A stretch of DNA of 32,000 bases from Halogeometricum borinquense DSM 11551 (lineage in GTDB: Archaea; Halobacteriota; Halobacteria; Halobacteriales; Haloferacaceae). Positions 1 through 32,000 of the stretch are shown here, in pieces. A model generated the notes under the pieces. It worked only from the letters and a program-made list of their open reading frames with translations, ran no database searches and had not been told where the DNA came from. Within the stretch, counting starts at the first letter, position 1; the number at the start of each line of letters is the position of its first letter. A program made the position numbers and the translations under genes. Where the stretch lies: assembly GCF_000172995.2 (NCBI RefSeq), contig NC_014732.1, forward strand, positions 120,001 through 152,000. The letters are read 5' to 3'.

Positions 1-498
1 CTCGTTTGCAACTTCGTCGATGCTCTCGCTCTGCTGTGTCGCCCCTTCGGCGATATCGTCTACCGAATCGGAGACGTTTCGGCTCGCGCTTCGACTGTCC
101 TCGACCGAATCAACGACGCTTTCGGTGGAGGCGGAAACCTGCTTCGCAAACACGTCCACGTCAGCCATCGTTCCGTGCAACTCCGCAAATAGATCGTTGA
201 GGGACTCCGCCAACTGAGCCATCTCGGGGTCGTCCGGCACATCCACTCGAACGCTCAGGTCACCGTCGGTGAACTGGTTTACTGCCGCGGTGAACTCCTC
301 GGCGAGAGCGGCCTTCGGAGACGAGTCGTCGGTGGTCGCATCTGTCGTCGCGTCAGGGGAGACGACGCTTCCACCGTCCGTGCCGACCCGTTCTGTTTCC
401 TGTGCCGACGACTCGCCGGTATCTCGCTTGAAAACCCTCGCTGCGAGTCGTTCTCGTAGCGATGGTTCCGGCGCGCTCGTGCCGTGGTTGTCTCTCAT
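1..498 (-). CDS. Halobacterial transducer / methyl-accepting chemotaxis protein, N-terminal part (C-terminus lies beyond the window start)
   Basis: Manual minus-strand translation from ATG 498..496: MRDNHGTSAPEPSLRERLAARVF...AAVNQFTDGDLSVRVDVPDDPEMAQLAESLNDLFAELHGTMADV (HAMP-like), then ...SVEDSRSASRNVSDSVDDIAEGATQQSESIDEVANE (start of the MCP signalling-domain heptads). The frame is open to position 1, so there is no stop in the window and the ORF is absent from the track. No hydrophobic N-terminal segments. Confidence 0.7.
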   Translation of the reverse strand, partial: MRDNHGTSAPEPSLRERLAARVFKRDTGESSAQETERVGTDGGSVVSPDATTDATTDDSSPKAALAEEFTAAVNQFTDGDLSVRVDVPDDPEMAQLAESLNDLFAELHGTMADVDVFAKQVSASTESVVDSVEDSRSASRNVSDSVDDIAEGATQQSESIDEVANE

Positions 499-569
499 TA
501 CGGTGACTTCTCTTGACTTTCAACTTAACCGTTGAGTGCGAAAAATCAAATGTGATAACGCCAGACAGC

Positions 570-1343
570 TTAGACTTCAGGCGATTCCATCACCTGTGGG
601 ACTCCCTGTGCCACGACTGTCTCACCGACGATGTACGACGAGGCGGGCGAGGCAAGGAACTGTGCGAGGTCGGCAATCTCCTCGGCTGTTCCGATGCGGC
701 GCTTTACCTCCTCACGGTCGATATTGTCGGCGGAGACGCCCATCTGTGATTCGACACCCGGCGTGGCGACGAATCCGGGTGCGATGCAGTTTACGCGGAC
801 GTTCTCGTCGGCCCACTCGTAGGCGAGCGTCGTCGTCAAATTGACCACGCCTGCCTTCGCCGCGCCGTAGTGACTCATAAACGGCGCACCCTCGGTTCCG
901 GCGACGCTAGCGAGGTTGATGACTGTCCCACCGCCGTCTTTCAGATACTCCCCGGCGACTTGGGTACAGTGGTACGTGCCGGTGAGATTGATGTCAACGA
1001 CGGTTTCCCACCCGTTCGCGGAGATGTCGTCGAACGACGACATGAACGACGCTCCCGCGTTGTTCACCAGACAGTCGAGGTCGCCGAACTCCTCGACGGT
1101 GGCCTCGACCAATGCCTCCACGGCCTCGCGGTCGGTCACGTCGCATTCGACGGCCAGCGCACGCCCGCCGTCGCCTTCGTTTATCCCGTCTGCAACAGGA
1201 TTTACGTTCCCTTGTTCGCGGGAGCAGACCACCACGTTCGCACCCTCCGCCGCGAAGCGTTCTGCGATGGTCTTTCCGATACCACTCGATGCACCCGTCA
1301 CGATGGCTGTCTGTCCATCAACACCGAATCGGTCCGCCGTCAT
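570..1343 (-). CDS. Short-chain dehydrogenase/reductase (FabG-like 3-oxoacyl reductase family)
   Basis: 257-aa ORF with ATG start and TAA stop. Rossmann motif TGASSGIGKTIAERFAAEGANVVVCSR, NNAG motif (LVNNAGA) and catalytic S...YGAAKAG (YxxxK). Confidence 0.9.
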   Translation of the reverse strand: MTADRFGVDGQTAIVTGASSGIGKTIAERFAAEGANVVVCSREQGNVNPVADGINEGDGGRALAVECDVTDREAVEALVEATVEEFGDLDCLVNNAGASFMSSFDDISANGWETVVDINLTGTYHCTQVAGEYLKDGGGTVINLASVAGTEGAPFMSHYGAAKAGVVNLTTTLAYEWADENVRVNCIAPGFVATPGVESQMGVSADNIDREEVKRRIGTAEEIADLAQFLASPASSYIVGETVVAQGVPQVMESPEV

Positions 1344-1489
1344 TGCTCTGCCTCCGTGATCCGTCTCTCGTCACTCATTCCGTCTTCTTCCTCTCGTGCA
1401 TCGTTAATCAAACCTCGCCTCAGGTTATCAACGTAAAACACTGACAACGTCGGAGTAACGCTTAAGAAATTTTGCGCACAACTGTGTGC

Positions 1490-1735
1490 ATGGGCGAGAC
1501 AGAGTACCGAAACGTCAGACTCACAGAAGACGCCTACCAGCGTCTGAAGATGCGTAAACAGGAGGGTGAGTCGTTCTCCGACACGGTCGCCCGAATTGCG
1601 GGCGAGCGGTCGCTGCTCGACTTAGCAGGAATCCTGTCCGACGACGAGGCCGACGCGATGCGCGATGCGATCCGAGAACGCGAGGAACAGTCACGTGACC
1701 GACTGGACCGCCTGTCCGACGAGATGGACTCGTGA
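1490..1735 (+). CDS. vapB: VapB-type antitoxin (archaeal PF02697-like putative antitoxin)
   Basis: MGETEYRNVRLTEDAYQRLKMRKQEGESFSDTVARI... matches the small archaeal antitoxin pattern (xVxLxxExYxxLxxxKxxxESFSDxIxRL). ATG at 1490; the track ORF starts upstream at TTG 1472. The stop overlaps the GTG start of the downstream PIN gene (GTGA, 1732-1735). Confidence 0.7.
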   Translation: MGETEYRNVRLTEDAYQRLKMRKQEGESFSDTVARIAGERSLLDLAGILSDDEADAMRDAIREREEQSRDRLDRLSDEMDS

Positions 1736-2124
1736 TCGTCGATACGAACGTTCTGATTCGGTTGATGCAGGGAGACGAGGATGCGACGCGGAAAATCCGC
1801 GAGTTGGAGGACGAACACGTTCCGCTCGCACTCTCGTCGATGACGCTGTTTGAACTGTATCACAGCGTCGAACGGGTGGACAGTCCCGACGAACGGCGTC
1901 GAAAGATTGCGTCCGTTATCGACTCGAAGCCGACGTACCCGGCTGACGGTGCAGTGATGAAGAAGGCGGGCCGCCTCGACGGTCGGTTGACGGACGACGG
2001 CCGCCAAGTCGGCATCGGAGATACGGTTATCGCGGCGACCGCGCTCGTTCACGAGGAACCCGTCCTCACCGAGAACGTCGCACACTTCGAGCGTATCGAC
2101 GGACTCGAAGTCGAATCGTATTAG
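1732..2124 (+). CDS. vapC: PIN-domain ribonuclease toxin VapC
   Basis: 130 aa. N-terminal MIVDTNVLI (first acidic PIN residue), GIGDTVIAATAL and the C-terminal LTENVAHFERI motif typical of VapC. Overlaps vapB by 4 nt. Confidence 0.85.
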   Translation: MIVDTNVLIRLMQGDEDATRKIRELEDEHVPLALSSMTLFELYHSVERVDSPDERRRKIASVIDSKPTYPADGAVMKKAGRLDGRLTDDGRQVGIGDTVIAATALVHEEPVLTENVAHFERIDGLEVESY

Positions 2125-10575: not shown

Positions 10576-11523
10576 TCAGTCGATCGCGTACGGTTCGGCA
10601 CTGAACGCCGGAAAATCAAGCGCCAGTAGACGTTGGCTTAGAGTGATCGCAGCGTCTGTATTTGAGACTGTATCGACCCAGGCAGTAGGAAAGGCGGTTG
10701 CTCCAAACCGGGCCCCGAGCAATGCACCAGTAAGTGCCCCAATTGTATCTGCGTCCCCACCATGGTTGACTGATTCACAAATTCCCTCACGTGGTGACTC
10801 TGCCGTGAGCCCATGGTATAAGGCGGCATGGAGGGTGCTGATTACGTAGCCGCTATCATATGTGGGTTCGGTTGCGCGCCAGTTTGAGACTCCGTCTTGC
10901 AGTTCACTGGGGAGTCGATGCTTGTATTCCTGTAGGAACGGCGTTAGTTCGGGTTTGTCGCCGCGAATGAGTTGTGCGACAATATAATTAAACAACGCAC
11001 AGGACCACTGACATCGTGTATCATAGTGGGTGATTGCAGAGATCACTCGACTCCCGCTGACCAACGACTGTGGATCTGCTCGGAATGCCACTGCAATTGG
11101 TGTACACCGCATGAGACTGCCGTTCCCTGCATCACGTCCGTCAGGTGCCTGCATCGACGCCTCATAGCTTGCAAGCGACCAGTCTTTCCCAGCAGCGATC
11201 TTTTCAAGCACATCTCTGGTTAAGTACCCGACATCAAGTGGCGAACTCCCTAACCAGTCTACAAACCGTGCAGACACGTCTTCGGGATCTAGTCGGTGGC
11301 AGTCAACCAAACTACGCGCCGTCCGAAGTGTTAGCTCGGTGTCGTCGGTCACAGTGCCTGCTGGCCGTGGCGGACGTCCGCCGTCTACGGGCCCGTCTAT
11401 CGTTCCGAATTGTTCGCTGACAGCTGTTTGGGATACAAACTCGACAGGCCGGCCAATTGCATCACCACACGCAACCCCAACAAGGACGCCAGCGGCACGG
11501 TCCTGTACGTCTTCAGGTGGCAC
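10576..11523 (-). CDS. ADP-ribosylglycohydrolase family protein (DraG/ARH/Tri1-like)
   Basis: 315 aa with a GTG start. Family motifs are all present: GVACGDAIGRPVEF, GTVTDDTELTL, GNGSLMRCTPIAV and HGGDADTIGALTGALLGARFG (di-metal site residues). Confidence 0.88.
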   Translation of the reverse strand: MPPEDVQDRAAGVLVGVACGDAIGRPVEFVSQTAVSEQFGTIDGPVDGGRPPRPAGTVTDDTELTLRTARSLVDCHRLDPEDVSARFVDWLGSSPLDVGYLTRDVLEKIAAGKDWSLASYEASMQAPDGRDAGNGSLMRCTPIAVAFRADPQSLVSGSRVISAITHYDTRCQWSCALFNYIVAQLIRGDKPELTPFLQEYKHRLPSELQDGVSNWRATEPTYDSGYVISTLHAALYHGLTAESPREGICESVNHGGDADTIGALTGALLGARFGATAFPTAWVDTVSNTDAAITLSQRLLALDFPAFSAEPYAID

Positions 11524-11879: not shown

Positions 11880-12923
11880 CTACGCGCCGAGATCTCGGGG
11901 GCCAACTACGTATTCCGCATAGTTCGAGAGTACTTCGATCGTTTTGGGGGCGAATATTGACTCCGCTGTAATGTAGTCAATCCAGTTCCACAGTCGCTCA
12001 TTTGGATCTGGCGCCTGTACTGTCAAATCCATCTCTGTCTGTATGTCCTGTTCAACGGTGATATCAAGCAGATCAGCAATATCCTGATGCTGGACTTCAT
12101 CTAATCTCACAGGCGTACTCAGCAACTGGATCGTCCGCCGGAGTTTTCGGGGCTCGCGATCACTGTCACGGTCATAAAAGTGGACCAGAAGCTTGTCTAT
12201 GGGGAGTTGGATTGCTCCTGTCAGGACGTGGAATTCACATTCTAATCCCGTATGTGCGGGTGGTTGGAAAAAACAGTCCGGCGCAAAGGCGATGCCTGTT
12301 CGCTGGGGATCGAACTCACAGACAACTCCTCGAGAAAAGCCACGCGCAACCTGTTCTCCAAGCGAAAAGCTACTGACAACTGCTGATTCGATTTCGATCA
12401 TCTGGCTGTCGGGTTGCTCTAATACTGCAGTCACAATGGGTGCAATCTCCTCTGGATAGAGCCCCCGGTAAAGCCCTCCCCTATATCCAGTTTGCTGTGA
12501 GAGAAACACCTGCGTTAGTCGATAGAACTCACGGTAGACATGAAACGACTCGCGTGGAAGCGGTTGAACCGATTTTCCATCACCCCGAATATATCCTGAA
12601 CAGCCCAGTGATTCCCGAACGACGTGGTCGTATGTTTGACCAACTGCTGGCTGATTACTCGCAGTCTTCATATGGTCTAATAAATCTTGAACCTCTCTGG
12701 CGGGAGTTTCACCATGCATGGCTGCAACTGCGTCGATAAATTCCTCTACGACCTCGTCTTTCAATTTGTAATATGTCGGCGTAGCTTGGGAGATACAGAC
12801 CTGCTGGGAGAGATCAAGCCCGAAATCGTCTTCAAAAGTACTGAGAGGGTCAACGAGTGGTAAATTAAGTTCACCTGCCATTTCGGTCATTCTGTGGTTA
12901 TTTCGCCATACGTTCTTGTCCAC
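11880..12923 (-). CDS. Predicted mono-ADP-ribosyltransferase (R-S-ExE class); otherwise a hypothetical protein
   Basis: 347-aa ORF (GTG 12923; alternative ATGs at 12890 and 12881). Ordered motifs: GGLYRGLY (R153, codon 12467..12465), AVVSSFSLG (S184-S187, 12374..12363) and GLECEFHVL (E228-x-E230, 12242..12234). Spacings are 31 and 41 aa, close to those of C3/iota/cholera-type ARTs. No signal peptide. The function call rests on motifs only. Confidence 0.55.
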   Translation of the reverse strand: MDKNVWRNNHRMTEMAGELNLPLVDPLSTFEDDFGLDLSQQVCISQATPTYYKLKDEVVEEFIDAVAAMHGETPAREVQDLLDHMKTASNQPAVGQTYDHVVRESLGCSGYIRGDGKSVQPLPRESFHVYREFYRLTQVFLSQQTGYRGGLYRGLYPEEIAPIVTAVLEQPDSQMIEIESAVVSSFSLGEQVARGFSRGVVCEFDPQRTGIAFAPDCFFQPPAHTGLECEFHVLTGAIQLPIDKLLVHFYDRDSDREPRKLRRTIQLLSTPVRLDEVQHQDIADLLDITVEQDIQTEMDLTVQAPDPNERLWNWIDYITAESIFAPKTIEVLSNYAEYVVGPRDLGA

Positions 12924-13106
12924 GGCATATAATGATCGTGATAACGTTCTGTCGGGCTGTTAGGTCCCAATTCGGGCGGCTCCTGAGACGGTGGGCAGTC
13001 CGAGCGTCACTCTTGAACGCCGGGCACTGTATCAGGAAAGACCCATTTACCGCTGATTGCTCTCACCGAGTCAGCAATCACCGGGAAGACATGGCACCCG
13101 TCCGCC

Positions 13107-15347
13107 TCAGAGTTTCTCTGCGGCGAGTGCTTGTTCGGACCGGCGGGTCGCTTGGTCGAGTCGGTTGCGCGCGGCGTTCGCTGCCGGGTCAGGCAGGCCG
13201 TCGCTCGCCGCTTCAAGTCGGTCCTTCGCTCGCTGAAGGTTATCCGTGGCGGCTTCGAGTGCCTTGTCCGCTCCCGGTGCATCGTTCGATTCGGCACGCT
13301 CTGCGGCTCGGTCGGCGGCCGCCGCGATGGCTTCGAGCGATTTCGTCAGGCCGTGGATGGCGTTCGCGCTGGGTCCACCGCCGGTACCGGAATCGTCGCC
13401 GCCGCTCTCGTTTTTGTCTCCGCCGCTTCCGTTTTTGTCTCCGCCGCCGTCCGTCCCTTCTGCCGCCTCCTGCACCGTCGTTGCCGTTTCACGCGTCACA
13501 TCTGCGAGGAACGAGGCGAGAGACGCTTTCCCCGTTCTCGGTCGGTCGATGGTAACTGACGGCTCCTCCGCCGGATTGACCCTGAACGCGCCGATGGCGT
13601 CGTCGGTGTCGCGGACTTCGGTCGTGTACGCGCCGCCGCGGTGGACGTAGACGGCGTCAGAGCCGTTTACGGGCGAGTCGTACAGTCGCCCGGCGAAGTC
13701 GTCTTCGACGGCCACGTCGGTCAGCGTCGCATCGGTTCCGTCAGCATCCACGCGTAGCTTCACGGCGTCACCCGACGCAACCAGTGGTATCTCGCCGTCT
13801 ACACCCGCAACGGCGACACCCGGCGGCGTCTGGTCGGCTTCGTTTTCGCTTTCGGTTTCTTCGGCCGTCGCGTCGTCAGTGCCGCCCGCCGCTGTCTCCG
13901 TTTCAGTCGCGTTGTTTGTCGCTGTCTCGTTCTCTGTCGCGTCGCTGACGCTGAGTTGCTGACTGTACGGTGCCGCACCGGCTCGGTTGACAGTCAAGCG
14001 GTGTTCGCCCGGCGGTACGTCTCTGAGGAGGGCGACGCCGCCGAACGTCGGAACTGCCTCGGGGTCGCTTTCCAAGAGGGCGACGGCCTCTACGTTCGAC
14101 GTTTGGGTTGTGAGCCCCTCGTTTTCCGGCGCGTCGTCGGTCGTCACGGCTTCTGTCACCGCCGCGACGACGCTGCCGACCGAACCCGGCGCACCGATTG
14201 CATCGTACTGTTCCGCCAGCGCGGCCCGGTGTGCCGGTTCGGTGATATCCGCCGCCGGATCCTCGTATCGCTCTTGCGTCCACGGTGCGTCTGTCGTCGT
14301 CAGGTGGCCAGCAATGGCGTCCTCGGCAAACTGGGTAACGTTGAACTCGAAACTCAACTGTGTGCCGGTGAACGCCGTGAGATGTTCGACCTCTGTGGCT
14401 GGAACCAGTTCGTACGTCTCGTCTCCTTCAGGGTCGTTTCGGCCCTCGAAGTCGAGAGCGAGTCCCGTTTCGCGGCCGGGAAGGTCCGTCGGCGGCGACG
14501 TGAGGTCGTCGAACGACCGGATGGTGAGTGCCTCGGGGACGAGCGTATCACGCGTGACCGCGGGGAGTCGCTCGTGTTCGTACACCGGTTTCCCGTCCAG
14601 TTCGGGGACGACGAACGGCAGGCGGAATCCCTCGTCGCGCGGTAGTCCGTACGCCGCGGGAACGTTCTCGAGCGAGGACAGGCCGCGAATCGCCCGGTTG
14701 GTGATGTCGGCCGAGATGTCGCCGACGGAGACGCGCTGGAAGCTCTCTCGCTCCTCGTTCAGCGAGAGCGCACTGGAATGTGACCCCAACTCCGAGAGTA
14801 TCCTCGGGACTTCCTCCATCGGATCGAGGTGTTCGTTGTTCGGCACGCGCCGGGAGTGCGAACTCGCGACGTGTAACCGTGCGCTGTCGCGTTCGGTATC
14901 GATGAAAACGTGCACTACTTCCCAGTCGTGCCAATGGAAATTCGTCGTGAACTGGTCGAACGCCGAGTAGAACCAGTACTGGACCACAGTCAGTGGCGAC
15001 TCTTCGTACGACCGGACGTTGTAGAACACCGTCGGGTCGGGAACGGGCGTTTCCGTCGCACGTTCGCTGTAGCCGTCGAGGGCGTCGAACCCCTCGACAA
15101 CAGGTTCGCCGTCGCTCTCGGACTCGTACGGTCGGGGGTCCGTCGGGAACCAGCGCTCGTTTGCGTCGAAGTACAACACCGGTGCGTAGCGCTCGGCCAG
15201 CGTCCGCGCCTCGTCCGTCGGAACCGCGGTGGTAGTGGCGTTCGGTTCGCTTTCTGTCGCCGAACAGCCGGCGACGGCCGCAGCGCTCGCGCTGGCAACG
15301 GCTGCGAGGAGTCGTCGCCGTGTGAGTTCGCTCCCGCCGTCCGTCAC
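13107..15347 (-). CDS. Tat-exported lipoprotein with an N-terminal Vps62/DUF946-like domain and an acidic low-complexity, coiled C-terminal region
   Basis: 746 aa. Twin-arginine signal plus lipobox: MTDGGSELTRRRLLAAVASASAAAVAGC. YAPVLYFDANERWFPTDP ... VVQYWFYSAFDQF..NFHWHDWEVVHVFID...VASSHS resembles the Vps62/DUF946 signature. T/E/D/A-rich linkers, a GGDKN repeat and an Ala-rich helical C-terminus. Confidence 0.8.
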   Translation of the reverse strand: MTDGGSELTRRRLLAAVASASAAAVAGCSATESEPNATTTAVPTDEARTLAERYAPVLYFDANERWFPTDPRPYESESDGEPVVEGFDALDGYSERATETPVPDPTVFYNVRSYEESPLTVVQYWFYSAFDQFTTNFHWHDWEVVHVFIDTERDSARLHVASSHSRRVPNNEHLDPMEEVPRILSELGSHSSALSLNEERESFQRVSVGDISADITNRAIRGLSSLENVPAAYGLPRDEGFRLPFVVPELDGKPVYEHERLPAVTRDTLVPEALTIRSFDDLTSPPTDLPGRETGLALDFEGRNDPEGDETYELVPATEVEHLTAFTGTQLSFEFNVTQFAEDAIAGHLTTTDAPWTQERYEDPAADITEPAHRAALAEQYDAIGAPGSVGSVVAAVTEAVTTDDAPENEGLTTQTSNVEAVALLESDPEAVPTFGGVALLRDVPPGEHRLTVNRAGAAPYSQQLSVSDATENETATNNATETETAAGGTDDATAEETESENEADQTPPGVAVAGVDGEIPLVASGDAVKLRVDADGTDATLTDVAVEDDFAGRLYDSPVNGSDAVYVHRGGAYTTEVRDTDDAIGAFRVNPAEEPSVTIDRPRTGKASLASFLADVTRETATTVQEAAEGTDGGGDKNGSGGDKNESGGDDSGTGGGPSANAIHGLTKSLEAIAAAADRAAERAESNDAPGADKALEAATDNLQRAKDRLEAASDGLPDPAANAARNRLDQATRRSEQALAAEKL
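13399..13447. repeat. 21-bp tandem repeat (about 2.3 copies) inside the lipoprotein gene
   Basis: ccgccgctctcgtttttgtct (13399-13419) and ccgccgcttccgtttttgtct (13420-13440), followed by a partial ccgccgc. These encode GGDKNES/GGDKNGS on the minus strand. Confidence 0.7.
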
Positions 15348-24691: not shown

Positions 24692-24772
24692 CGCCTGAAT
24701 CGGGGTCGCGTCGTCTCGTTTGAACGCTTGTGGCCCGGGAGAAACGGATCCCGGTCGAAAAGCACGCGCGGT

Positions 24773-25012
24773 TCAGAGTCGGTCGTCGTTGATTCCGCCG
24801 GGGTCGCTCGCGGTGTCGAACAGGTTGTTTTCTGCGCCGTCCATGAAGTCGTCGCCGGGCGTGGATTCGTCCACGACACTGACGTTGTAGGCGTCGATAC
24901 CCATACTCAGAAGCTCTTCGACGGCTTGCTCCTCGGTCACGAACTCTTCGTCTACGAGCTGTTCGAACTCGGTCAACAACTCGTCGGGGAGTGTCACTTC
25001 GACGATTGGCAT
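24773..25012 (-). CDS. Small acidic protein, probable ribbon-helix-helix (CopG-like) domain
   Basis: MPIVEVTLPDELLTEFEQLVDEEF... matches the beta-strand plus helix start of RHH proteins. Acidic disordered tail. Confidence 0.5.
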   Translation of the reverse strand: MPIVEVTLPDELLTEFEQLVDEEFVTEEQAVEELLSMGIDAYNVSVVDESTPGDDFMDGAENNLFDTASDPGGINDDRL

Positions 25013-25126
25013 CGGTCAAGGTTCGAACTCCTCCTACTTGAGTGGCCGGTTGCTGAGCGTTCGTTCGCGCCGCCCGTCACCGATTCACCTTTCGTCTGGA
25101 ATCGCCGCTACTCGGTTCCCTTTTCC

Positions 25127-25570
25127 TCACCAACCCCATGCGGTGTCTCGGCGTGGCAGGTTACGCGGACCGGTTCGCCGTCTCGTTCTGTCTCGACGGC
25201 CCCACATCTGCCCGCATCCGAGGAGTGTCACCCAGTCATCACCGCGGCGTTGGTCCACCGTCACGAGGATATCGTCGGTCTCGCTGTCACGCCCGGCGTA
25301 CTCGATGCGAATCTGCTCTCCGTACACTTTCAGGCCCGTCGGCCCTTGCAGTTCGACCACTGTCGAGTCGGTCCGCCCATCCGGGTGTTCGACGAGAACT
25401 TCCACCATCGGTGCGTCGCCGTCGGGCACGGAGAACGATACTGAGAGTACGTTTTCGTCCACGTCTACGTTTTCGATTTCGACGAGCGACGCAGAGACGC
25501 CGGCGGCGTCAGCTACCTGTTGTCTGAGTACGTTGACGGGTACTCGGGCCGTGTCACGTTGTCTGTCCAT
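25127..25570 (-). CDS. Hypothetical protein (possible C-terminal frameshift)
   Basis: ATG 25570 (MDRQRDTARVPVNVLRQQVADAAGV...VEVLVEHPDGRTDSTVVELQGPTGLKVYGEQIRIEYAGRDSETDDILVTVD...). The last 23 aa are strongly Arg-rich (10 of 23), which is atypical, while an alternative frame gives an acidic tail (see findings). Confidence 0.45.
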   Translation of the reverse strand: MDRQRDTARVPVNVLRQQVADAAGVSASLVEIENVDVDENVLSVSFSVPDGDAPMVEVLVEHPDGRTDSTVVELQGPTGLKVYGEQIRIEYAGRDSETDDILVTVDQRRGDDWVTLLGCGQMWGRRDRTRRRTGPRNLPRRDTAWGW

Positions 25571-25636: not shown

Positions 25637-26425
25637 TCATCCGATCAAGGGTATCGCGTCGGACCACAACTGTTGAAACTGTCGCTCGAACTCGGCGACG
25701 ATATCGGTTTCTTTCACTCCCACGACTCCGAATCGGTCGGCTCCTCCCCGTGGATTTGGGATATCGATCATCGTCGTGGTTTGATCGATGATGTCGAAGG
25801 AAACCGGAATCTCCGGCAGCACGCTGATCGAGATGTCTACCGATTTCGATTTTACCAACTCCGGGAAGGTTTCAGGGAGCGTCGTTAGCACCTCGTCACT
25901 GAATATGAGCGAGACGCTGACGTCTGTCTGCATCGCGCCGAAGAACGCATCGAACTCCGACCGGAGCGTCTCCCACGATGCATGCTCGTAGGGTGGCCCT
26001 ACGGTGCCGCGTACGGAGCGAGTTGCAGTCTGGACGTGTTGCCGGATGGCAGTGTTCATCTCGTCGCTACCGAGTGTGCCAAGCCAGACACTGCCGTCGG
26101 CCGCTGGGGTTGGCGGTAGATTAGAGTGGATTGTCGCTGCCAGTTCGTGGTAGCGGTTCCATTCCCGTTGTAGTTCATCCGTTCGTTCGGCGAGCAGTCT
26201 GTCAACTGCGGTCTCGGGGTCTACGGCGATGTATCTCGTCGGATCAGTTGATTGACTTTGAATCAGTGTTCGGGCTTCGAGACCATTGAGAACATCGTAA
26301 ATGCGACCTTTGGGGACGCTACTGGCCGCTGATAGCTCCGTCGCTGTCGCCGTCCCGGTTACGAGGAGCGTCCGATAGACTTTCTCTTCGTAACTTGAGA
26401 GGCCCAGTTCGCTCAGCGCCGTCAT
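25637..26425 (-). CDS. TrmB family transcriptional regulator
   Basis: From ATG 26425: MTALSELGLSSYEEKVYRTLLVTGTATATELSAASSVPKGRIYDVLNGLEARTLI, the canonical TrmB N-terminal wHTH. Divergent from the SMR gene. Confidence 0.85.
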   Translation of the reverse strand: MTALSELGLSSYEEKVYRTLLVTGTATATELSAASSVPKGRIYDVLNGLEARTLIQSQSTDPTRYIAVDPETAVDRLLAERTDELQREWNRYHELAATIHSNLPPTPAADGSVWLGTLGSDEMNTAIRQHVQTATRSVRGTVGPPYEHASWETLRSEFDAFFGAMQTDVSVSLIFSDEVLTTLPETFPELVKSKSVDISISVLPEIPVSFDIIDQTTTMIDIPNPRGGADRFGVVGVKETDIVAEFERQFQQLWSDAIPLIG

Positions 26426-26561
26426 AGCGAACTGTCTCTCTGTTTTCAGTAAATATGTGTATGATACCGTTTCGACGTACCGGTTGCTGTACTTCCTGAA
26501 ACGGACCACAAGTGGTGCTATATTCCAATAACTCCATACTATCGTGGTTGGAGCATATTGT

Positions 26562-26894
26562 ATGAACCCCTATCTGTTGCTTGTCAGCGCAATCATCGCT
26601 GAAGTCATCGGAACGACCGCTCTCAGACTTTCGGAAGGGTTTTCGAAACCACTTCCCAGTTTGGGCGTCCTCCTCGGCTACGGGATTGCGTTCTATCTGG
26701 TTTCGCTGACCATGGAGGAACTCCCAATCGGCGTCGTGTACGGAACGTGGGCGGCGTTGGGAATCGTCGGCATCGCAGGAATCGGCATCGTGTTTTTTGA
26801 TGAGTCGATTGACCTCGCCGGTGTTCTTGGTATCCTCCTGATCGTTGTTGGTGTGTACTGTATCAATGTTGTTTCCGACGTATCTGTTCACTAA
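26562..26894 (+). CDS. SMR family small multidrug resistance transporter (EmrE/QacE-like)
   Basis: From ATG 26562: MNPYLLLVSAIIAEVIGTTALRLSEGFSK... with the conserved membrane Glu (AEV), a YAxWxGxG-like motif (VVYGTWAALGIVG), four TM segments and about 110 aa. Confidence 0.88.
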   Translation: MNPYLLLVSAIIAEVIGTTALRLSEGFSKPLPSLGVLLGYGIAFYLVSLTMEELPIGVVYGTWAALGIVGIAGIGIVFFDESIDLAGVLGILLIVVGVYCINVVSDVSVH

Positions 26895-27321
26895 TTGTCT
26901 CTTTTGATAGTACTATTTGTTTATATGGGTATAAATAGGCACGGTCAAGTATCATAGCTTGGCTATCTGGTCTTATATATGGTGTAACCACACTGACTGT
27001 ACTGGATAATGCTTCGGGACACATCTCTTTATTCGTTGAACGGGGGGATGAGAAGCGGTGTTAGCATTGGATAACCTGATCGCTCGGGTGGAACGCCCAC
27101 ACTCACCGAACTCAACTGGTTTTCCCTTCGATTGTCACTGTGCCATTTGTCTCGCGGTTGGAATGAGGGGACAGCGCGGACCCCCTCGAATCCACTTGTC
27201 TTTATTGAGGTAAAACAAAGTTCTGTACTGATGGTCTGAATCGTCCGAATTTAGACAGTAGCGCTGCAAAATACGCTGGTTCTACATTTTATAAATCATA
27301 TGTCGATATATCTATTTGTGA

Positions 27322-27343
27322 AGACTGGAAGTTGAGACTACAT
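27322..27343. repeat. Left terminal inverted repeat of the IS4-like element
   Basis: See the mobile_element entry; 18 of 22 positions match the reverse complement of 29247-29268. Confidence 0.6.
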
Positions 27344-27518
27344 CCAGTATAGAGGGCCTCTGATGCGTGGATGTAGCCGAACTGAGGAAGGGGAGTCGCT
27401 TCAATTCCCCGTCTCCACGCCGATTTATTCTAAAACACTAACTGGTTATGATACGCAGCAAGCATCAGGAGGGACCTGCTGCTCACCACCAGGGCGGACG
27501 TCGAAACGGGACGGTAGC

Positions 27519-29197
27519 CTACCCAATCCCTGTCTGCTTCTTCAACAGCGTCAAGACGCTATTTGCCGTCACCACTGGTGGCCGGTCGTATTCACCAGCC
27601 AATTCGACCTGCACGAGGAGATCAACTGACCTCCAGATCGAATACAATAGGCACGCGAATGCGAAGTAGAAGAACCGCAGCACGAAGTTCTTCGACGTCG
27701 TTGCGGCCATGAACCGCTTGATACTCTTGTAACCGCTCTCGATTTCCCAGCGCGACCCATATTTTCCGATAGCCTCGGTTTCGTAATTCGTCATGAACAC
27801 TGAGTACTGCCGATAGTCCGTGTGCTCAGAGTTCTCCTTCCGTCGATACACGAGAGTTGTCTCGTGCCACTCATCGTCTCCTAAATGCAGTCCACGGTCG
27901 ACCGATTGACGGTCAATATCGTGTTCGCACAATTGACGAGCTGTTTCCTTCTCGCTAGTCCGCATCCGCTTCGGAACTACGTACTGAAGTCTCCGAGAAG
28001 AAATCTCTTCTAAGACGTGCTGGCTATCGAACTCTCGATCCATCAAGACGTCGTCGACCATCACCATCTCTTCTGCCGAGTCGAGTAGGTCGCGCACTAT
28101 CTCAAGACGGGTATCGCCCTTCCGGACTGGCCTGGCGTCTAAGACCAACGGGACTGCATTACCCACAAGTTGGACCGTCGCCCATTGATACGCGTATTCA
28201 TCCGTCTTCTCCTTCGTCCCGATAATCTCACTCTCATGTCCCGCCCGGTCCCCGGTGAATGGGTCATCTTCTGTGATGTCGATTGCAACGGTTCCCGCAC
28301 GATAGAACTCGTTCGTCTCTGCGAGTCGGTCTATCAGCCGTCCAACGGCCTCACGATACATTCCTCGAACCTCCCCGATGGAGAGTTCTCGTAGGCTGGA
28401 TCGGTGAGTGTGACCCAGTGGTGTGCGTTCACGGTCGGATTCGAGTGTGAAGCTCCGTGCTCCCTCGTTCGCAGCGAGGTTCTCTCGGAGTCCGAGGTAC
28501 GTCTGGAGGTCCCAGAACGAGTTCGTGTGAATCTCTCTGGACTCACCTCGATGCAACGAGAACGAGGGATACGCGACTCTTTGAATTTCCTCGACGACCT
28601 TGTCTGTTTTCGAGAGTACTTCTTGGTCATTGAGAGCAGTATCCTCGTCGTTCTCGTCGAGACGGTTGATCGTCCGTGGGGGGCTTCGGGGGACATCTAC
28701 TCCAGCCATCTCCGCTTTGACGAGAATCGTTTGAGCAGCCTTCTGAATCGTCTCCTGAACTTCAGTAGTAAACCGTTGGTTCCACGTTCGCCACAGCGTC
28801 GACTGGTCGGGTAACGTCTCGGAGCCAAGTTGTTCACCGAGCGACGGACGCTGTTGGAGGTATTCGACGAGAGCGGTCTCGTGGCTCCAGCCGTGGAGTG
28901 CTTTGAGGAGAAACGCCCTGAACAATTGAGCCATCGGATACTGAGTCGAGACAGAATAGCGCGGTCGTGCGGGTCGAAGTCGATGTATTCGAGGGGATAG
29001 TGAACTACGAACGTCTCGACTGAGTCGTGAGCCTCGTGGTCGAACCATTCTGCTGCGACGGTTCTGATGTCTTCTGTGAGGCCTCCGAGTGAACTTCGGT
29101 CGTAGAGGGGTGTGGAAGAATAGGTCGGCCATGTCGAATACTCGTGCTGTGCGAGAGATCGGTAGACGTCGCGTCGAGAGAGTTGTGTGGAGGGCAT
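27519..29197 (-). pseudogene. DDE transposase (IS4 superfamily) split over two frames
   Basis: The protein-like N-terminal part lies in the frame starting at ATG 29197 (MPSTQLSRRDVYRSLAQHEYS...HYPLEYIDFDPHDRAILS). The remainder lies in the 27519..29132 frame from about ...VSTQYPMAQLFRAFLLKALHGWSHETALVEYL. DDE signature: VAIDITEDD, VLMDREFDS and YGSRWEIESGYKSIKRF. The frame change is equivalent to -1 and lies near 28935-28975. An alternative reading is two separate ORFs, with the transposase starting at ATG 28934. Confidence 0.6.
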
Positions 29198-29246
29198 AAT
29201 TCCTTACTATGGCTCAGAATTCAAGTAGATGACCGCAACGCTCGAA

Positions 29247-29268
29247 ATATAGTCGCATCTTCAAGTCT
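29247..29268. repeat. Right terminal inverted repeat of the IS4-like element
   Basis: See the mobile_element entry. Confidence 0.6.
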
Positions 29269-29363
29269 AAGTAATTCGTTGGATACATGCATCAAAGGCG
29301 TCCTATACCGGTGTCGTCCAACTCTCACGTTATCGGGAAGATTATAACAAACCAACATTTATT

Positions 29364-29576
29364 ATGAGTGTGGATAAAATGACCAGTATGTTAGAAGATC
29401 GTTTAACGAACCGAGGGAAGATAACTGCTGTATTTGTGTTGGGTACCGTTCTAGTTTTGTTGGGTATTGGACAACTGTTTGACTACGATCTATTATCGAT
29501 TCCCCCACTAATATATGCCACCTTGGGTGGATTTTTACTTTTATGGGGGATTCTTGAACTTTTTGTGAACCGTTGA
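29364..29576 (+). CDS. Hypothetical small membrane protein (70 aa, 2 TM)
   Basis: ATG start. Hydrophobic segments ITAVFVLGTVLVLLGIGQLF and PPLIYATLGGFLLLWGILELF. Low-G+C DNA immediately outside the IS end. Confidence 0.4.
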   Translation: MSVDKMTSMLEDRLTNRGKITAVFVLGTVLVLLGIGQLFDYDLLSIPPLIYATLGGFLLLWGILELFVNR

Positions 29577-29625
29577 ATTGAATCTGAAAAATACTGAAAA
29601 TGTGTTCTAAAAAATAACCAATTAG

Positions 29626-29952
29626 TTACTGAGATTCTACGTTTCGGTAGCCGACAGTAGGAAGAGGAGGAGCTGTGGATTGGACCTCTATGTGAACCCC
29701 ACATCCATCAGCTTTCAAATTGATTTCCCCCTTAACAACCAAGAGAGCTCCTGCAATCAGAGTTCCGACAGCGGGTGGTGTGCCAGCCTCAAGAACACCC
29801 CATTTATACAGAGCATCAGCAATAGCTGAAGCCCCTGCCCCGATATCGAACAGTGCATTCAAGTCATCGATATTTCCTTCGCTCAGCCAAATGTCGTACC
29901 TATTGTACACGCCATATATCTCATAAGCGTATCCAGACTTGTTGCACGTCAT
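29626..29952 (-). CDS. Hypothetical protein (108 aa) with a Gly/Ala-rich hydrophobic segment, coupled to the upstream Tat-signal ORF
   Basis: The ATG overlaps the upstream stop (ATGA at 29949-29952). Sequence MTCNKSGYAYEIYGVYNRYDIWLSEGN...AGTPPAVGTLIAGALLVVKG.... No signal peptide and no family recognised. Confidence 0.5.
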   Translation of the reverse strand: MTCNKSGYAYEIYGVYNRYDIWLSEGNIDDLNALFDIGAGASAIADALYKWGVLEAGTPPAVGTLIAGALLVVKGEINLKADGCGVHIEVQSTAPPLPTVGYRNVESQ

Positions 29953-30359
29953 TTATCCGATTCTCCGTTTTTGTTAGCTCTTTTTACTTCTGGGACTCCA
30001 TTTGAATTCACACTGGCGATTTTTAGTTCCCCAGACTCAATTTTCTCGTTGATTGCCCCAACTTGTAGTTGGATTTCTTGGAGAGTCACCAATTTGGCAC
30101 CTTCTGGTGCTTCAGGAAAGTCTGAGATGTCAAGTTCGTCAATTTCTTCCTGAGTCACATTCAACTTGACCTTGTTTCCTTGCGCCTTAATCCAGCCCTT
30201 TCCAACAGCAGAACTACCTTTGCGATCTTTTTGGGTTGATTCACTACCAGGGTCCGCACTGACTGCGCCCATAGACGCCAATCCAGCAATAGTGAGACCA
30301 CTCACTTCCATCAATGTTCTTCTACTGATCTTGTTTGGAGGTTTCATCCGATTGATCAT
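29949..30359 (-). CDS. Small Tat-exported, Lys-rich hypothetical protein (136 aa)
   Basis: Twin-arginine signal KISRRTLMEVSGLTIAGLASMGAVSA followed by DPGSESTQKDRKGSS.... The mature part is about 100 aa and rich in K, E and N. The ATG at 30359 lies 10 nt from the IS6 left end. Confidence 0.55.
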   Translation of the reverse strand: MINRMKPPNKISRRTLMEVSGLTIAGLASMGAVSADPGSESTQKDRKGSSAVGKGWIKAQGNKVKLNVTQEEIDELDISDFPEAPEGAKLVTLQEIQLQVGAINEKIESGELKIASVNSNGVPEVKRANKNGESDK

Positions 30360-30369
30360 ATTAGGAGAT

Positions 30370-30385
30370 AGGCACTGTCTAGTTA
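30370..30385. repeat. IS6 left inverted repeat
   Basis: AGGCACTGTCTAGTTA, a perfect match to the reverse complement of 31101-31116. Confidence 0.85.
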
Positions 30386-30420
30386 AGCCAGTTTGAGGAA
30401 CGAGCAGGTCGTTGAGTTAG

Positions 30421-31107
30421 TTGGTCAAGATGCTCGCAGACCTGCTCAGCGAGTGCTTTGAGACGGATTATGAAGAAACTTGGGAGCGTGAGCGGACGGC
30501 GACACCCGTCAGGGTGTTCGCCGTCCAGCTCCACGCGACCGGGTGTTCGCTTAGAGAGACAAAAGAAATTCTTCGAATACTCGGCGTTGAACGCTCTCAT
30601 CAAGCTGTTTGGCAGTGGGTACATCGACTGGCTGACAGCGGTCACAACCCGCCTGAGGCAACGCCGAAGCGGGTTGCGGTTGATGAGACCGCTGTCAAAA
30701 TCAACGGTGAGTGGTCTTGGTTGTACGCCGCAATAGACATCGAGACGAAGCTGATTCTCGATGTCGAGTTGTTTGGACGGCATGGTACCGATCCGGCTGC
30801 TGCGTTTCTCCATCGACTTTCCGAGAAACATGATCTCTCAGATGCTGTGTTTCTGGTTGATGGCTATGGCTATCAGACTGCCCTCTCTCGATTAGGATTG
30901 AGCGGTCGGCTTGACTACGTCGAGCGAAACCTCATCGAAAAATGGTTTCATACCCTCAAAATGCGAGTCGACCGCTTCCATAATTCGTGGGTGGGCAGTC
31001 ACGGAAGCGTCCGCGAGTGGTTCATACAATTTGCGCAATACTATAACTTTCAACGACCGCATCAATCGCTCAACGGACGTACGCCGGTTGAGGAGGTCAC
31101 TAACTAG
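30421..31107 (+). CDS. IS6 family DDE transposase
   Basis: 228 aa (TTG 30421; ATG at 30430). Residues VAVDETAVKINGEWSWLYAAID (D), FLVDGYGYQ (D), NLIEKWFHTLKMR (E) and the C-terminal YYNFQRPHQSLNGRTP are typical of IS6/IS26-like, haloarchaeal ISH14/ISH29-type transposases. Confidence 0.88.
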   Translation: MVKMLADLLSECFETDYEETWERERTATPVRVFAVQLHATGCSLRETKEILRILGVERSHQAVWQWVHRLADSGHNPPEATPKRVAVDETAVKINGEWSWLYAAIDIETKLILDVELFGRHGTDPAAAFLHRLSEKHDLSDAVFLVDGYGYQTALSRLGLSGRLDYVERNLIEKWFHTLKMRVDRFHNSWVGSHGSVREWFIQFAQYYNFQRPHQSLNGRTPVEEVTN

Positions 31108-31116
31108 ACAGTGCCT
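31101..31116. repeat. IS6 right inverted repeat
   Basis: TAACTAGACAGTGCCT. Confidence 0.85.
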
Positions 31117-31339
31117 TCTGCGTCGTGCCCTCTACTATGTGATCTTCTTTACTGGGACATTGCTGCTGGCCCTGGAGACATTAAATCGAATTTTCGCATC
31201 AATGTAGTCCAAGCCAGATACCATCCCTGAACTGCGAGGATATACTCAAAAAGAGAAAGTATAATATTTTCAACGAATAATTCAGGTAACGCTCAATCGT
31301 CGATCGAGTCCTCACTGTCATCCCTTGGAGCGCGTCATC

Positions 31340-31504
31340 GTGAAATCGAACTACCCGAAGATGGCGAGCGGATACAAGAAAGACGGCGAGTACAAGCGTG
31401 GATACAAGTACGCGACAATCACCTTCGTAGGAGATTACGCACCGATTGTTCTCGGATTTCACGGATTTGATGTCTTAGAGTATGTCGCTATCCATTTATT
31501 CTAA
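31340..31504 (+). pseudogene. Probable remnant of an IS4-superfamily transposase
   Basis: Manual translation: VKSNYPKMASGYKKDGEYKRGYKYATITFVGDYAPIVLGFHGFD.... The core resembles EKTDEYAYQWATVQLVGNAVPLVLDARPV of the transposase at 27519-29197 (pattern Y.[YW]AT[IV].[FL]VG...P[IL]VL). No start codon and no rest of the protein. Confidence 0.3.
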
Positions 31505-31745
31505 GTTTGAGATAGACGAGTCTATGGTGCGAATAGCAGAATCCGTTCAGGCAGTCGGCGCGTATATTCTCTCTTTATTTACTGCATTGATTGTAGCTAT
31601 GCTCGCCGGCGTTGTCGTTGGCGGAAACGCTGAGCCGAGAACAATCTCAAGGGCTGTTGTTGTTCTCGTGTTCTTCACGACTCTCATCGGATCGATGATA
31701 TTTCTCAAAAAGTATAAAAATGAGGTTTTCTCCACCTTTACTTGA
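31482..31745 (+). CDS. Hypothetical small membrane protein (87 aa, 2 TM)
   Basis: ATG start. Hydrophobic segments AVGAYILSLFTALIVAMLAGVVVGG and AVVVLVFFTTLIGSMIFL. Low-G+C accessory DNA. Confidence 0.4.
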   Translation: MSLSIYSKFEIDESMVRIAESVQAVGAYILSLFTALIVAMLAGVVVGGNAEPRTISRAVVVLVFFTTLIGSMIFLKKYKNEVFSTFT

Positions 31746-32000
31746 ATATCGGTCGTTCAGTCTCTGAGAACGTCATAGAACGCCTATCCAAGAGTCTATG
31801 TGTGAATGTGAGTCATTTGCACGTATGCTGAATCGTCTCTCGAAAGCCGTGGGAGGCGACGGTCCTGCAGGAAATTCAAACACCGTTACCAGATAGAGGA
31901 TGAACACAGCGCTCGTACTTGGGGGGTGTCTACGAATATCAAATCCGAGACAAATCGCGGAAAATACTGATCTCAGTCAAGGCGCACGATACTAACGCGT

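Follow-up and report, generated by a model that had tools for sequence, protein, structure and literature searches.

Introduction

Reversible ADP-ribosylation, in which an ADP-ribosyltransferase (ART) writes a mark that a hydrolase erases, is a known mechanistic class, and pairs of this kind, such as DraT/DraG and Tre1/Tri1, have already been described in bacteria. In ARTs of the R-S-E (cholera-toxin-like) type, the placement of the arginine, of the STS motif and of the ARTT loop with its E-x-E motif is established knowledge (summarized in PMC8120803). The homologues of DraT have been described as confined to nitrogen fixers, and DraT is without a solved structure; for the Tre1-Tri1 pair, represented by the structure entry 6dre/6drh, it is known that an N-terminal extension of Tri1 blocks Tre1's active site (PMC8120803). 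Other themes of the literature that are matched by the findings reported below are head-packaged ARTs, polyvalent effectors and ART-hydrolase toxin-antitoxin pairs (PMC5512222; PMC9503650), and polyvalent proteins have been found to be scarce in archaea (PMC5512222). The present study concerns a minus-strand gene, and the two genes that follow it, in a stretch of 32,000 nucleotides (nt) from the haloarchaeon Halogeometricum borinquense DSM 11551 (contig NC_014732.1, positions 120,001 to 152,000), hereafter called the window, to which all coordinates refer unless a locus is named. An earlier note on this DNA had read the product of the first gene as a putative ART with motif spacings resembling those of the C3 and iota toxins; the gene very probably encodes a protein-ADP-ribosylating enzyme, and the known family closest to its catalytic core is DraT.

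Results

Catalytic motifs and their conservation

Residue numbers follow the count of the earlier note, which starts from an upstream GTG (12923); in the numbering from the ATG at 12890 (M12 numbering) they are 11 lower. The motifs were found where the note had placed them: in the translation GYRGGLYRGLY begins at residue 146, ESAVVSSFSLGEQ at 179 and HTGLECEFHVLTG at 224, while on the DNA the codon of R153 is CGG (12467..12465), those of S184, S185 and S187 are AGT, AGC and TCG (within 12374..12363), and E228 and E230 are both encoded by GAA (12242..12240 and 12236..12234). The spacings, 31 residues from R153 to S184 and 41 from S187 to E228, are likewise as given there. The motif string by itself is weak evidence. 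A loose pattern with the same spacings, [YFHW]R..S.[ST]..E.E, is present in 4.9% of shuffles of the window protein and in 3 of the 76 long open reading frames (ORFs) of the window; the strict pattern [YFHW]RG..S.[ST]..G.E.E is present in 0.045% of shuffles and, among the frames of the window, in the ART-like ORF only. The observation rises above chance because the motifs are conserved among homologues and because the family is homologous to DraT, two results that support the ART reading of the note.

A word-indexed search of 5.8 billion proteins returned just two haloarchaeal proteins, that of the window and one from Haloferax denitrificans, and a word-indexed profile search seven proteins only, while HMMER, run exhaustively over 1.84 billion cluster representatives, gave 33 relatives at an expectation value (E) of 1e-3 or below, mostly 18-40% identical. 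The conservation counts were taken from a 31-sequence family alignment (A2). R153 and E230 are without exception in these homologues, with G154 close behind (Table 1), and position 152, ahead of R-G, is aromatic in all relatives, as the note had remarked for the window protein; E228 is kept in 26 of the 31 sequences, the replacements being S (three), V (one) and D (one). In the serine motif, S184 is Ser or Thr in 24 of 31 sequences and S187 in 29 of 31; at position 185, 21 sequences have Asn and seven have Ser.

Outside the three motifs, R113 and D216 are also invariant (Table 1). R113, from which we infer help in binding the NAD+ phosphate, is also retained in two proteins of the halovirus HCTV-1 described below, gp107 and gp109; D216 is kept neither in DraT nor in HCTV-1 gp107. 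Further invariant or near-invariant residues are W314 (31/31), H279 (30/31) and P171 (30/31). The note had recognised no family in the regions on either side of the core and suggested that they could specify the target. Both the N- and the C-terminal regions are conserved family-wide, with R113, H279 and W314 invariant or nearly so, and the flanks are integral parts of the family and not optional extras.

Homology to DraT

When the members were scanned one by one against Pfam, DRAT (PF07357) was the sole ART-type family matched, by P0028 (E 9.2e-6, 25.5 bits, with a cut-off of 25), P0022 (2.9e-4, 20.6 bits) and P0033 (0.018, 14.7 bits), in all three cases within model positions 152-255 of 256, the C-terminal part; the window protein misses the gathering threshold of this model (no DRAT match at E <= 1). 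As a DraT reference, a replicon of Rhodobacter sp. CZR27, reached through the hydrolase search, provided an annotated draT-draG pair, and a DraT profile was made from a 20-sequence alignment (A4) of collected DraT homologues. With hhalign, the family profile aligned to the single DraT with 79% probability (E 1.5e-5) and to the DraT profile with 95.1% probability (E 3.2e-8), and the ART core alone to the DraT profile with 95.6% probability (E 1.3e-8), while the controls, a reversed and 20 column-shuffled profiles, gave E values of at least 0.029 and scores of at most 20 (58.4 for the real profile). Profile-profile comparison, which the note had proposed, thus matched an ART family, but the partner is DraT and not a toxin of the C3 or iota group. 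In spacing, too, the 28 and 38 residues of Rhodobacter DraT are a better fit to the 31 and 41 found here than are the toxins named in the note; the R-to-Ser distance of 31 is also shorter than those of CTX (54), MTX (45), Scabin (40) and ModA (37) (table in PMC8120803).

The aligned stretch pairs the segment of the family from the R motif to E-x-E with DraT residues 181-272 of 273, a homologous segment in which LYRG, S-F-[ST] and E-x-E superpose. LYRG falls on the LYRG of DraT, in which R188 and G189 are invariant, S-F-S on S216-F217-T218 and E-C-E on E256-R-E258, of which S216, F217, E256 and E258 are invariant in DraT; in an independent hmmalign alignment the LYRG, SFT and ERE of DraT fall in the identical columns. 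In the hhalign comparison nothing aligns upstream of DraT residue 181, and the window family adds a C-terminal helical domain of about 90 residues. Because the first ~180 residues of DraT are unmatched and DraT is without this C-terminal domain, the family is, as far as the sequences tell, a sister family that shares the catalytic core and not a DraT orthologue.

The surroundings differ as well, the window cassette lying in an archaeal, mobile context with a third, small gene between writer and eraser, and without a nitrogenase or PII context. Gene calls for the window region and for the related loci examined include no nif or PII genes, such as would go with nitrogenase (NifH Arg101) as the target and with PII regulation, window positions 1-1880, 24728-25444, 26510-27518 and 29133-32000 being uncovered. 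Haloarchaea are not known to fix nitrogen.

Predicted structure

An AlphaFold2 model computed on alignment A2 has a mean predicted local distance difference test score (pLDDT) of 90.6 and a predicted template-modelling score (pTM) of 0.87. In M12 numbering it is built of an N-terminal helical part (about 45-131), a core rich in beta-strands and a bundle of C-terminal helices (250-329). The core has R142 on strand 140-143, with a helix after it, and the serine motif on strand 172-176, followed by helix 179-184; strand 219-223, which comes after a loop, opens with E219. In the model, the order and placement of the motifs are those expected of an R-S-E ART.

When the full model was compared with the Protein Data Bank (PDB) by Foldseek, SpvB came first (E 0.19) and VahC next (1.2). 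A core-only model matched VahC (0.11), the Yersinia RHS2 ART toxin (0.22), PARP10/12/14, KptA, AvrPphF ORF2 and SpvB, and about 24 of its best 50 PDB fold matches are ART-fold chains, none at E <= 0.001. The structural check proposed in the earlier note accordingly had a mixed outcome: the model is confident and its strands are placed as in ARTs, but the best PDB fold matches, although they are ARTs, are non-significant (E 0.1-0.2). In relation to C3, iota, SpvB and VahC, the three-motif logic and the strand placement are shared and SpvB, VahC and RHS2 are the best PDB fold matches, whereas these matches are non-significant (E 0.1-1, TM-score about 0.3) and a sequence-level link is lacking. 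The DraT profile matched no PDB chain.

Two other resemblances were dropped. A match of the N-terminal helices to eIF3m (E 0.003) is short, and no eIF3 fold is among the best 50 Foldseek matches; a match of a 33-residue strand-helix stretch around the serine motif (12363-12400) to HisF, which came up repeatedly at sub-significant to marginal values and was best to an engineered duplicated HisF (PDB 4j9j, E 3.7e-4 with the core profile), is also short, with no TIM-barrel among the best 50. Both were judged to be local chance similarity.

The three-gene cassette

The ART gene is followed on the same strand, after 62 nt, by an ORF for an acidic protein of 92 amino acids (aa) and, after a further 15 nt, by the gene of a 315-aa hydrolase (Table 1). 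The G+C content of the three genes is 50-56% (49.9% for the ART gene) vs 60-65% in the flanking genes. Downstream of the hydrolase by 118 nt, again on the same strand, there are genes for an AMP-binding enzyme (acyl-CoA synthetase) and then an acyl-CoA dehydrogenase.

The hydrolase scores with the NCBIfam models of DraG (3e-47) and Tri1 (3e-35), both under the equivalog cut-offs. Its best matches of solved structure are the DraG proteins of Rhodospirillum rubrum (2woc, 3.2e-36) and Azospirillum brasilense (3g9d), together with 6dre/6drh (2.4e-25). The metal and catalytic motifs GDAxG, TDDTE, PxDVG (Asp97 of DraG) and GGDADT are kept. As in DraT/DraG, then, transferase and hydrolase are encoded in one operon and the best solved relative of the hydrolase is DraG. 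With Tre1/Tri1, of a Serratia type VI secretion system (T6SS), the cassette has in common an R-S-E arginine ART, here a predicted one, and a DraG-like reversing hydrolase in one operon, as well as the logic of a conflict system. Unlike Tri1, however, the window hydrolase starts only where its match to the Tri1 model does, at position 64 of the 361 in the profile, and is thus without some 60 initial positions, which presumably include the occluding N-terminal extension; in the window cassette the occluding role may be played by the separate small acidic protein. A further difference from Tre1/Tri1 is that no T6SS genes are present in the window or in the related loci, and Tre1 was not matched by sequence in the PDB searches.

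The same gene order is repeated at three other loci, so that a hydrolase is co-encoded with an ART of the family in four: in Haloferax denitrificans (L001), among integrase and IS200/TnpB genes and a gene for an nSTAND NTPase; on plasmid p163 of Halorubrum sp. BOL3-1 (L011), between two integrases and adjoining helicase, DNA methyltransferase, DUF262 and restriction-endonuclease genes; and in a metagenome contig (L006), where the transferase is 21% identical and fused to helix-hairpin-helix (HhH) motifs. The flanks differ at every locus, which indicates that what moves is the cassette. No clear borders of the island emerged when its surroundings were scanned for repeats and tRNAs.

The small ORFs 3' of the ART gene are united by jackhmmer in the window, Haloferax (L001), Halorubrum (L011), L004 and L009/L010, the last of which have the small ORF and no hydrolase; further loci have an ORF of 67-137 aa in the position of the small protein. 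The alignable small ORFs have an acidic composition and a 'D-W-L'-like motif in common, and the small acidic protein of the window found no match in any family library scanned. Since the small ORF accompanies the ART even where there is no hydrolase, it is the pair of transferase and small protein that stays constant, with the hydrolase added in one subgroup.

DraG-like hydrolases are also encoded on other haloarchaeal plasmids (L014-L019), namely of Haloplanus, Halorubrum (p117), Halocatena, Halobaculum, Halapricum and Halorientalis; they are 42-45% identical to that of the window, and hmmsearch finds no ART of the family beside them. They adjoin McrBC, VWA plus AAA/HEAT, CBS-domain or CRISPR ring-nuclease genes. 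By analogy with the orphan erasers predicted for bacteria to act against foreign ADP-ribosylation (PMC9503650), these hydrolases may be 'orphan erasers' of the same purpose.

Relatives on viruses and other mobile elements

Among viral structure models, Foldseek significantly matched the HCTV-1 protein R4TI14 (E 1.1e-5), a protein of an uncultured archaeal virus (1.7e-5) and, at 6e-4 to 4e-3, giant phage proteins that contain DEDDh and MuF domains. R4TI14 is the product of HCTV-1 (KC292029) gene 107 (L021:17967-19994), which has the portal gene (gene 105) on one side and the Mu gpF-like gene 108 on the other. Over residues 388-667, gp107, a protein annotated as hypothetical, can be aligned with the family as a whole (hhalign 98.7%, E 3e-16; hmmsearch 6.6e-26); it retains the Arg and the catalytic Glu, and has lost the aromatic, Gly and first Ser or Glu positions. 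The product of gene 109 (L021:20928-24560), a 1,210-aa 'zeta toxin domain protein', is matched by the hidden Markov model (HMM) of the family at 5.4e-25 and retains H-R-G, F-T and E-G-E. Genes 107 and 109 thus flank the Mu gpF-like gene, between portal and major capsid genes, and their products are candidate capsid-packaged, injected ARTs of an archaeal virus. A tblastn search of the phage collection with the window protein and with P0024 returned nothing, though HMM and profile methods find gp107 and gp109. In a PHROGs scan of the window protein, the sole match was to the unannotated phrog_24083 (1,233 positions; E 3.5e-6, residues 61-205). Like the phage ARTs that are packaged in heads or polyvalent (T4 Alt; MuF-fused proteins), the family thus has domains in a portal/MuF/capsid module, that of HCTV-1; unlike them, the window copy is a gene that stands by itself, cellular or plasmid-borne, and comes with an eraser of its own. 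None of the Alt/VIP2-type Pfam models was matched.

Other members are found on elements of diverse kinds. A metagenome contig encodes an 858-aa member with a multi-pass membrane N-terminus (L007:5584-8160) right after relaxase-like and TrwB/VirD4-type coupling genes, which suggests an effector or channel fusion of a conjugative element in a haloarchaeon. Further members are located beside ParA and in an island by a ribosomal operon (in a metagenome-assembled genome of Halobacteriales). The most frequently sampled member (P0159, L022-L025:6001-7074; 73 blocks of the collection), in which S-D-E replaces E-x-E, is encoded after genes for a family-B DNA polymerase and a DUF8156 protein and is followed by a 73-aa ORF, with no hydrolase; it may belong to a mobile element that encodes the polymerase. 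A tblastn search of plasmids with P0028 found the Halorubrum homologue only. Some members (P0031, P0035 and P0036) bear an HhH DNA-binding N-terminus, a hint that the enzyme of this subgroup works on or near DNA; downstream of the HhH-bearing member L006:41-1507 the small ORF and the hydrolase are still present.

Gene start and feature coordinates

The minus-strand open frame (11880..12923) translates into 347 aa. The protein is 100% identical to the hypothetical protein C499_12680 of H. borinquense DSM 11551 (P0001, 336 aa). Because the NCBI gene model starts at the ATG at 12890, and the only close relative, from Haloferax denitrificans (69% identity), begins at the equivalent Met, the numbering of the earlier note is probably 11 too high, and the real residues are probably R142, S173/S174/S176 and E217/E219. 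A TTATAT element is located 37-42 nt upstream of this ATG and downstream of the alternative GTG (within 12891-12932, minus strand); should this be an archaeal TATA box, the transcript would begin 3' of the GTG, in favour of the product of 336 aa.

Table 1. Positions in the window of the ART-like gene, its motifs and domains, and the two genes that follow it (conservation counts from alignment A2)
Feature	Position	Strand	Remarks
ART-like protein gene	11880..12890	-	336 aa from ATG 12890; stop TAG 11882..11880
N-terminal helical region, residues 1-95 (M12)	12606..12890	-	helices 45-95 in the model; aligns family-wide and to HCTV-1 gp107 residues 388 onward
R113 (R102 in M12)	12585..12587	-	second invariant Arg, 30/30, some 40 residues N-terminal to the R motif
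ART catalytic core, residues 96-246 (M12; 107-257 in the count of the earlier note)	12153..12605	-	hhalign to DraT 95.6%, E 1.3e-8; pLDDT 88.7
L-Y-R-G, 'R' motif	12462..12473	-	R153 30/30, G154 29/30, preceding Y/H/F 30/30; model strand 140-143 (M12)
S-S-F-S, 'S-x-S' motif	12363..12374	-	strand 172-176, then helix 179-184 (M12)
D216 (D205 in M12)	12276..12278	-	invariant Asp between S-x-S and E-x-E, 31/31
E-C-E, 'E-x-E' motif	12234..12242	-	E230 31/31, opens strand 219-223 (M12); E228 26/31
C-terminal helical domain, residues 250-336 (M12)	11883..12143	-	helices 250-329; H279 and W314 conserved; absent from DraT
Small acidic protein gene, 92 aa	11539..11817	-	between ART and hydrolase genes
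ADP-ribosylglycohydrolase gene, 315 aa, DraG/Tri1-like	10576..11523	-	Pfam ADP_ribosyl_GH 7.5e-70

Elsewhere in the window, the region upstream of the cassette encodes a 746-aa protein (13107-15347, minus strand) that bears a twin-arginine-like signal with Cys lipobox and long stretches of low complexity and acidic composition; its Pfam match to the NPP1 necrosis-inducing protein is weak and sub-threshold (E 0.032). A stretch of low G+C content (26000-32000, 45-52%) includes the gene of a 537-aa DDE transposase (27519-29132, minus strand; DUF772 plus DDE_Tnp_1), after which there are three small ORFs with no family match; this region is probably an insertion sequence or another island.

Discussion

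The best reading of these data, and in our judgement a likely one, is that the window protein is an active mono-ART of the R-S-E type with a DraT-related core, forming part of a mobile module for reversible arginine ADP-ribosylation that resembles toxin/antitoxin systems of biological conflict. The protein is predicted to be enzymatically active. R153, probably aided by the invariant R113, would hold NAD+, the strand with S184-x-x-S187 would shape the nicotinamide-ribose pocket, and E230 would be the catalytic glutamate, with E228, in the E-x-E form, pointing to arginine as the acceptor. This choice of acceptor is suggested by the E-x-E form together with the partner of the DraG/Tri1 type, a putative ADP-ribosylarginine hydrolase encoded by the third gene, which would erase the mark. 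The small acidic protein is proposed to be a direct inhibitor, an antitoxin or a chaperone of the transferase: because the hydrolase is without the ~60 N-terminal positions of the Tri1 model, direct inhibition would be supplied by it in trans. The cassette would then function on haloarchaeal mobile elements as a toxin/antitoxin-like module (addiction or abortive infection) and not as a housekeeping regulator. The context agrees with a module of this type (type II toxin-antitoxin or abortive infection), with a compact operon, low G+C content, nearby integrases and defence genes and a sporadic distribution; there is no PADLOC match. The relatives in halovirus heads and on conjugative elements would probably be effectors delivered with the DNA.

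Several observations weigh against this reading. The window protein has no matches in Pfam (none at E <= 1), NCBIfam or PADLOC, and therefore none to their ART models. No ART was matched in PDB sequence searches with the window protein or with alignments A1, A2 and A5, and the PDB fold matches are not significant (best E 0.11-0.19, TM-scores about 0.3). The similarity to DraT spans just ~90 residues, and hhalign sets the invariant Ser of DraT against position 185, which is Asn in most members; the serine motif, besides, is not strictly kept and is looser than the R and E motifs. That R153, S184/S187 and E230 would share one pocket is predicted from the strand topology of the model. Most family members are without a hydrolase, so that the coupling of writer and eraser is not family-wide. 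Both the toxicity of the transferase and the part assigned to the small protein we infer purely.

A less likely, though substantial, alternative is that the protein is a take-over or anti-defence effector of mobile elements, which would modify host proteins (e.g. RNA polymerase or defence proteins) in the manner of T4 Alt, to the advantage of a virus or plasmid entering the cell, the cellular cassette being a captured gene or a remnant whose partners protect the carrier. The homologous domains of HCTV-1 gp107 and gp109 in the portal/Mu gpF/capsid module, the MuF-fused phage proteins among the structural matches, the profile match to phrog_24083 and the membrane-fused member right after relaxase and TrwB coupling protein genes all point in this direction, and head-packaged ARTs are a known theme (PMC9503650; PMC5512222). 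The window copy, however, is a free-standing protein of 336 aa with no virion or transfer genes nearby, and the tight linkage to an eraser, with the defence-gene island of the Halorubrum plasmid, fits a self-contained unit of toxin and antidote. It is less likely again that the target is other than arginine, the protein being either a toxin that consumes NAD+ (NADase) or an ART with the bases or ends of DNA or RNA as its substrate. The HhH DNA-binding domains at the N-terminus of P0031, P0035 and P0036 would suit such a target, R-S-E ART-fold enzymes include guanine-specific DNA modifiers (table in PMC8120803), and 5 of 31 members have S, V or D in place of E228; yet the window protein has the full E-x-E form, and while the listed E-x-E enzymes (cholera toxin, MTX, SdeA), DraT and Tre1 hit arginine, the guanine-specific Scabin and SCO5461 are of the Q-x-E form (PMC8120803). 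Moreover, the linked hydrolase is nearest to DraG and 6dre/6drh (Tri1), which are arginine-ADP-ribose hydrolases, and a pure NADase would gain nothing from a partner that hydrolyses ADP-ribosylated protein.

That the cassette is a housekeeping switch like DraT/DraG, silencing a metabolic enzyme of the host, e.g. the acyl-CoA synthetase or the acyl-CoA dehydrogenase encoded downstream, appears improbable. DraT and DraG are the nearest known families, and the genes of the AMP-binding enzyme and of the dehydrogenase follow the hydrolase gene closely on the same strand, but a metabolic switch is disfavoured since the neighbours are unconserved, being integrase, TnpB/IS200, methylase and restriction genes in Haloferax and Halorubrum, and since the distribution is sporadic, with the cassette confined to three genomes and a few metagenome contigs in spite of the 5.8 billion proteins searched. 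The G+C content of the cassette, 5-15 points under that of the flanks, and the absence of NifH or PII genes from the annotated parts of the loci examined also speak against it; the acyl-CoA genes were rejected as the regulated target because the neighbourhood is not conserved in Haloferax and Halorubrum. Least probable by far is that the motifs are coincidental, or the protein a catalytically dead scaffold and not an enzyme. The loose pattern does occur in about 5% of shuffles, direct family matches and significant PDB fold matches are lacking, and a stretch of 33 residues resembles a HisF beta-alpha unit, but chance is disfavoured by the invariance of R153 and E230 in spite of a sequence identity of only 18-25% among relatives and by a profile homology to DraT far above the hhalign controls; in addition, the HisF match is short and has no support from the fold, and at four loci the operon also includes the gene of a hydrolase that would act on the predicted product.

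Considering the reading of the cassette as an arginine ADP-ribosylation module again, what is new is a family that is absent from Pfam, NCBIfam and PADLOC, with a distant tie to DraT outside the nitrogen fixers, an archaeal and haloviral distribution, a constant small third component, and extra N- and C-terminal domains. It is also possible, although doubtful on balance, that this represents the first ADP-ribosylation conflict system of Archaea, and that DraT-related arginine ARTs circulate in haloviruses (as injected effectors packaged in the capsid, namely HCTV-1 gp107 and gp109), conjugative elements and plasmids, have been captured as cellular cassettes of writer, small stoichiometric inhibitor and DraG-like eraser that serve as toxin/antitoxin or abortive-infection defences, and were the source of the domesticated DraT of bacteria. 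If confirmed, the high-confidence structural model would bear on the catalytic core of DraT, the theme of injected ARTs would be extended to archaeal viruses, where polyvalent proteins were thought to be scarce (PMC5512222), and research on archaeal virology and defence would gain a tractable ADP-ribosylation system that can be tested in Haloferax volcanii.

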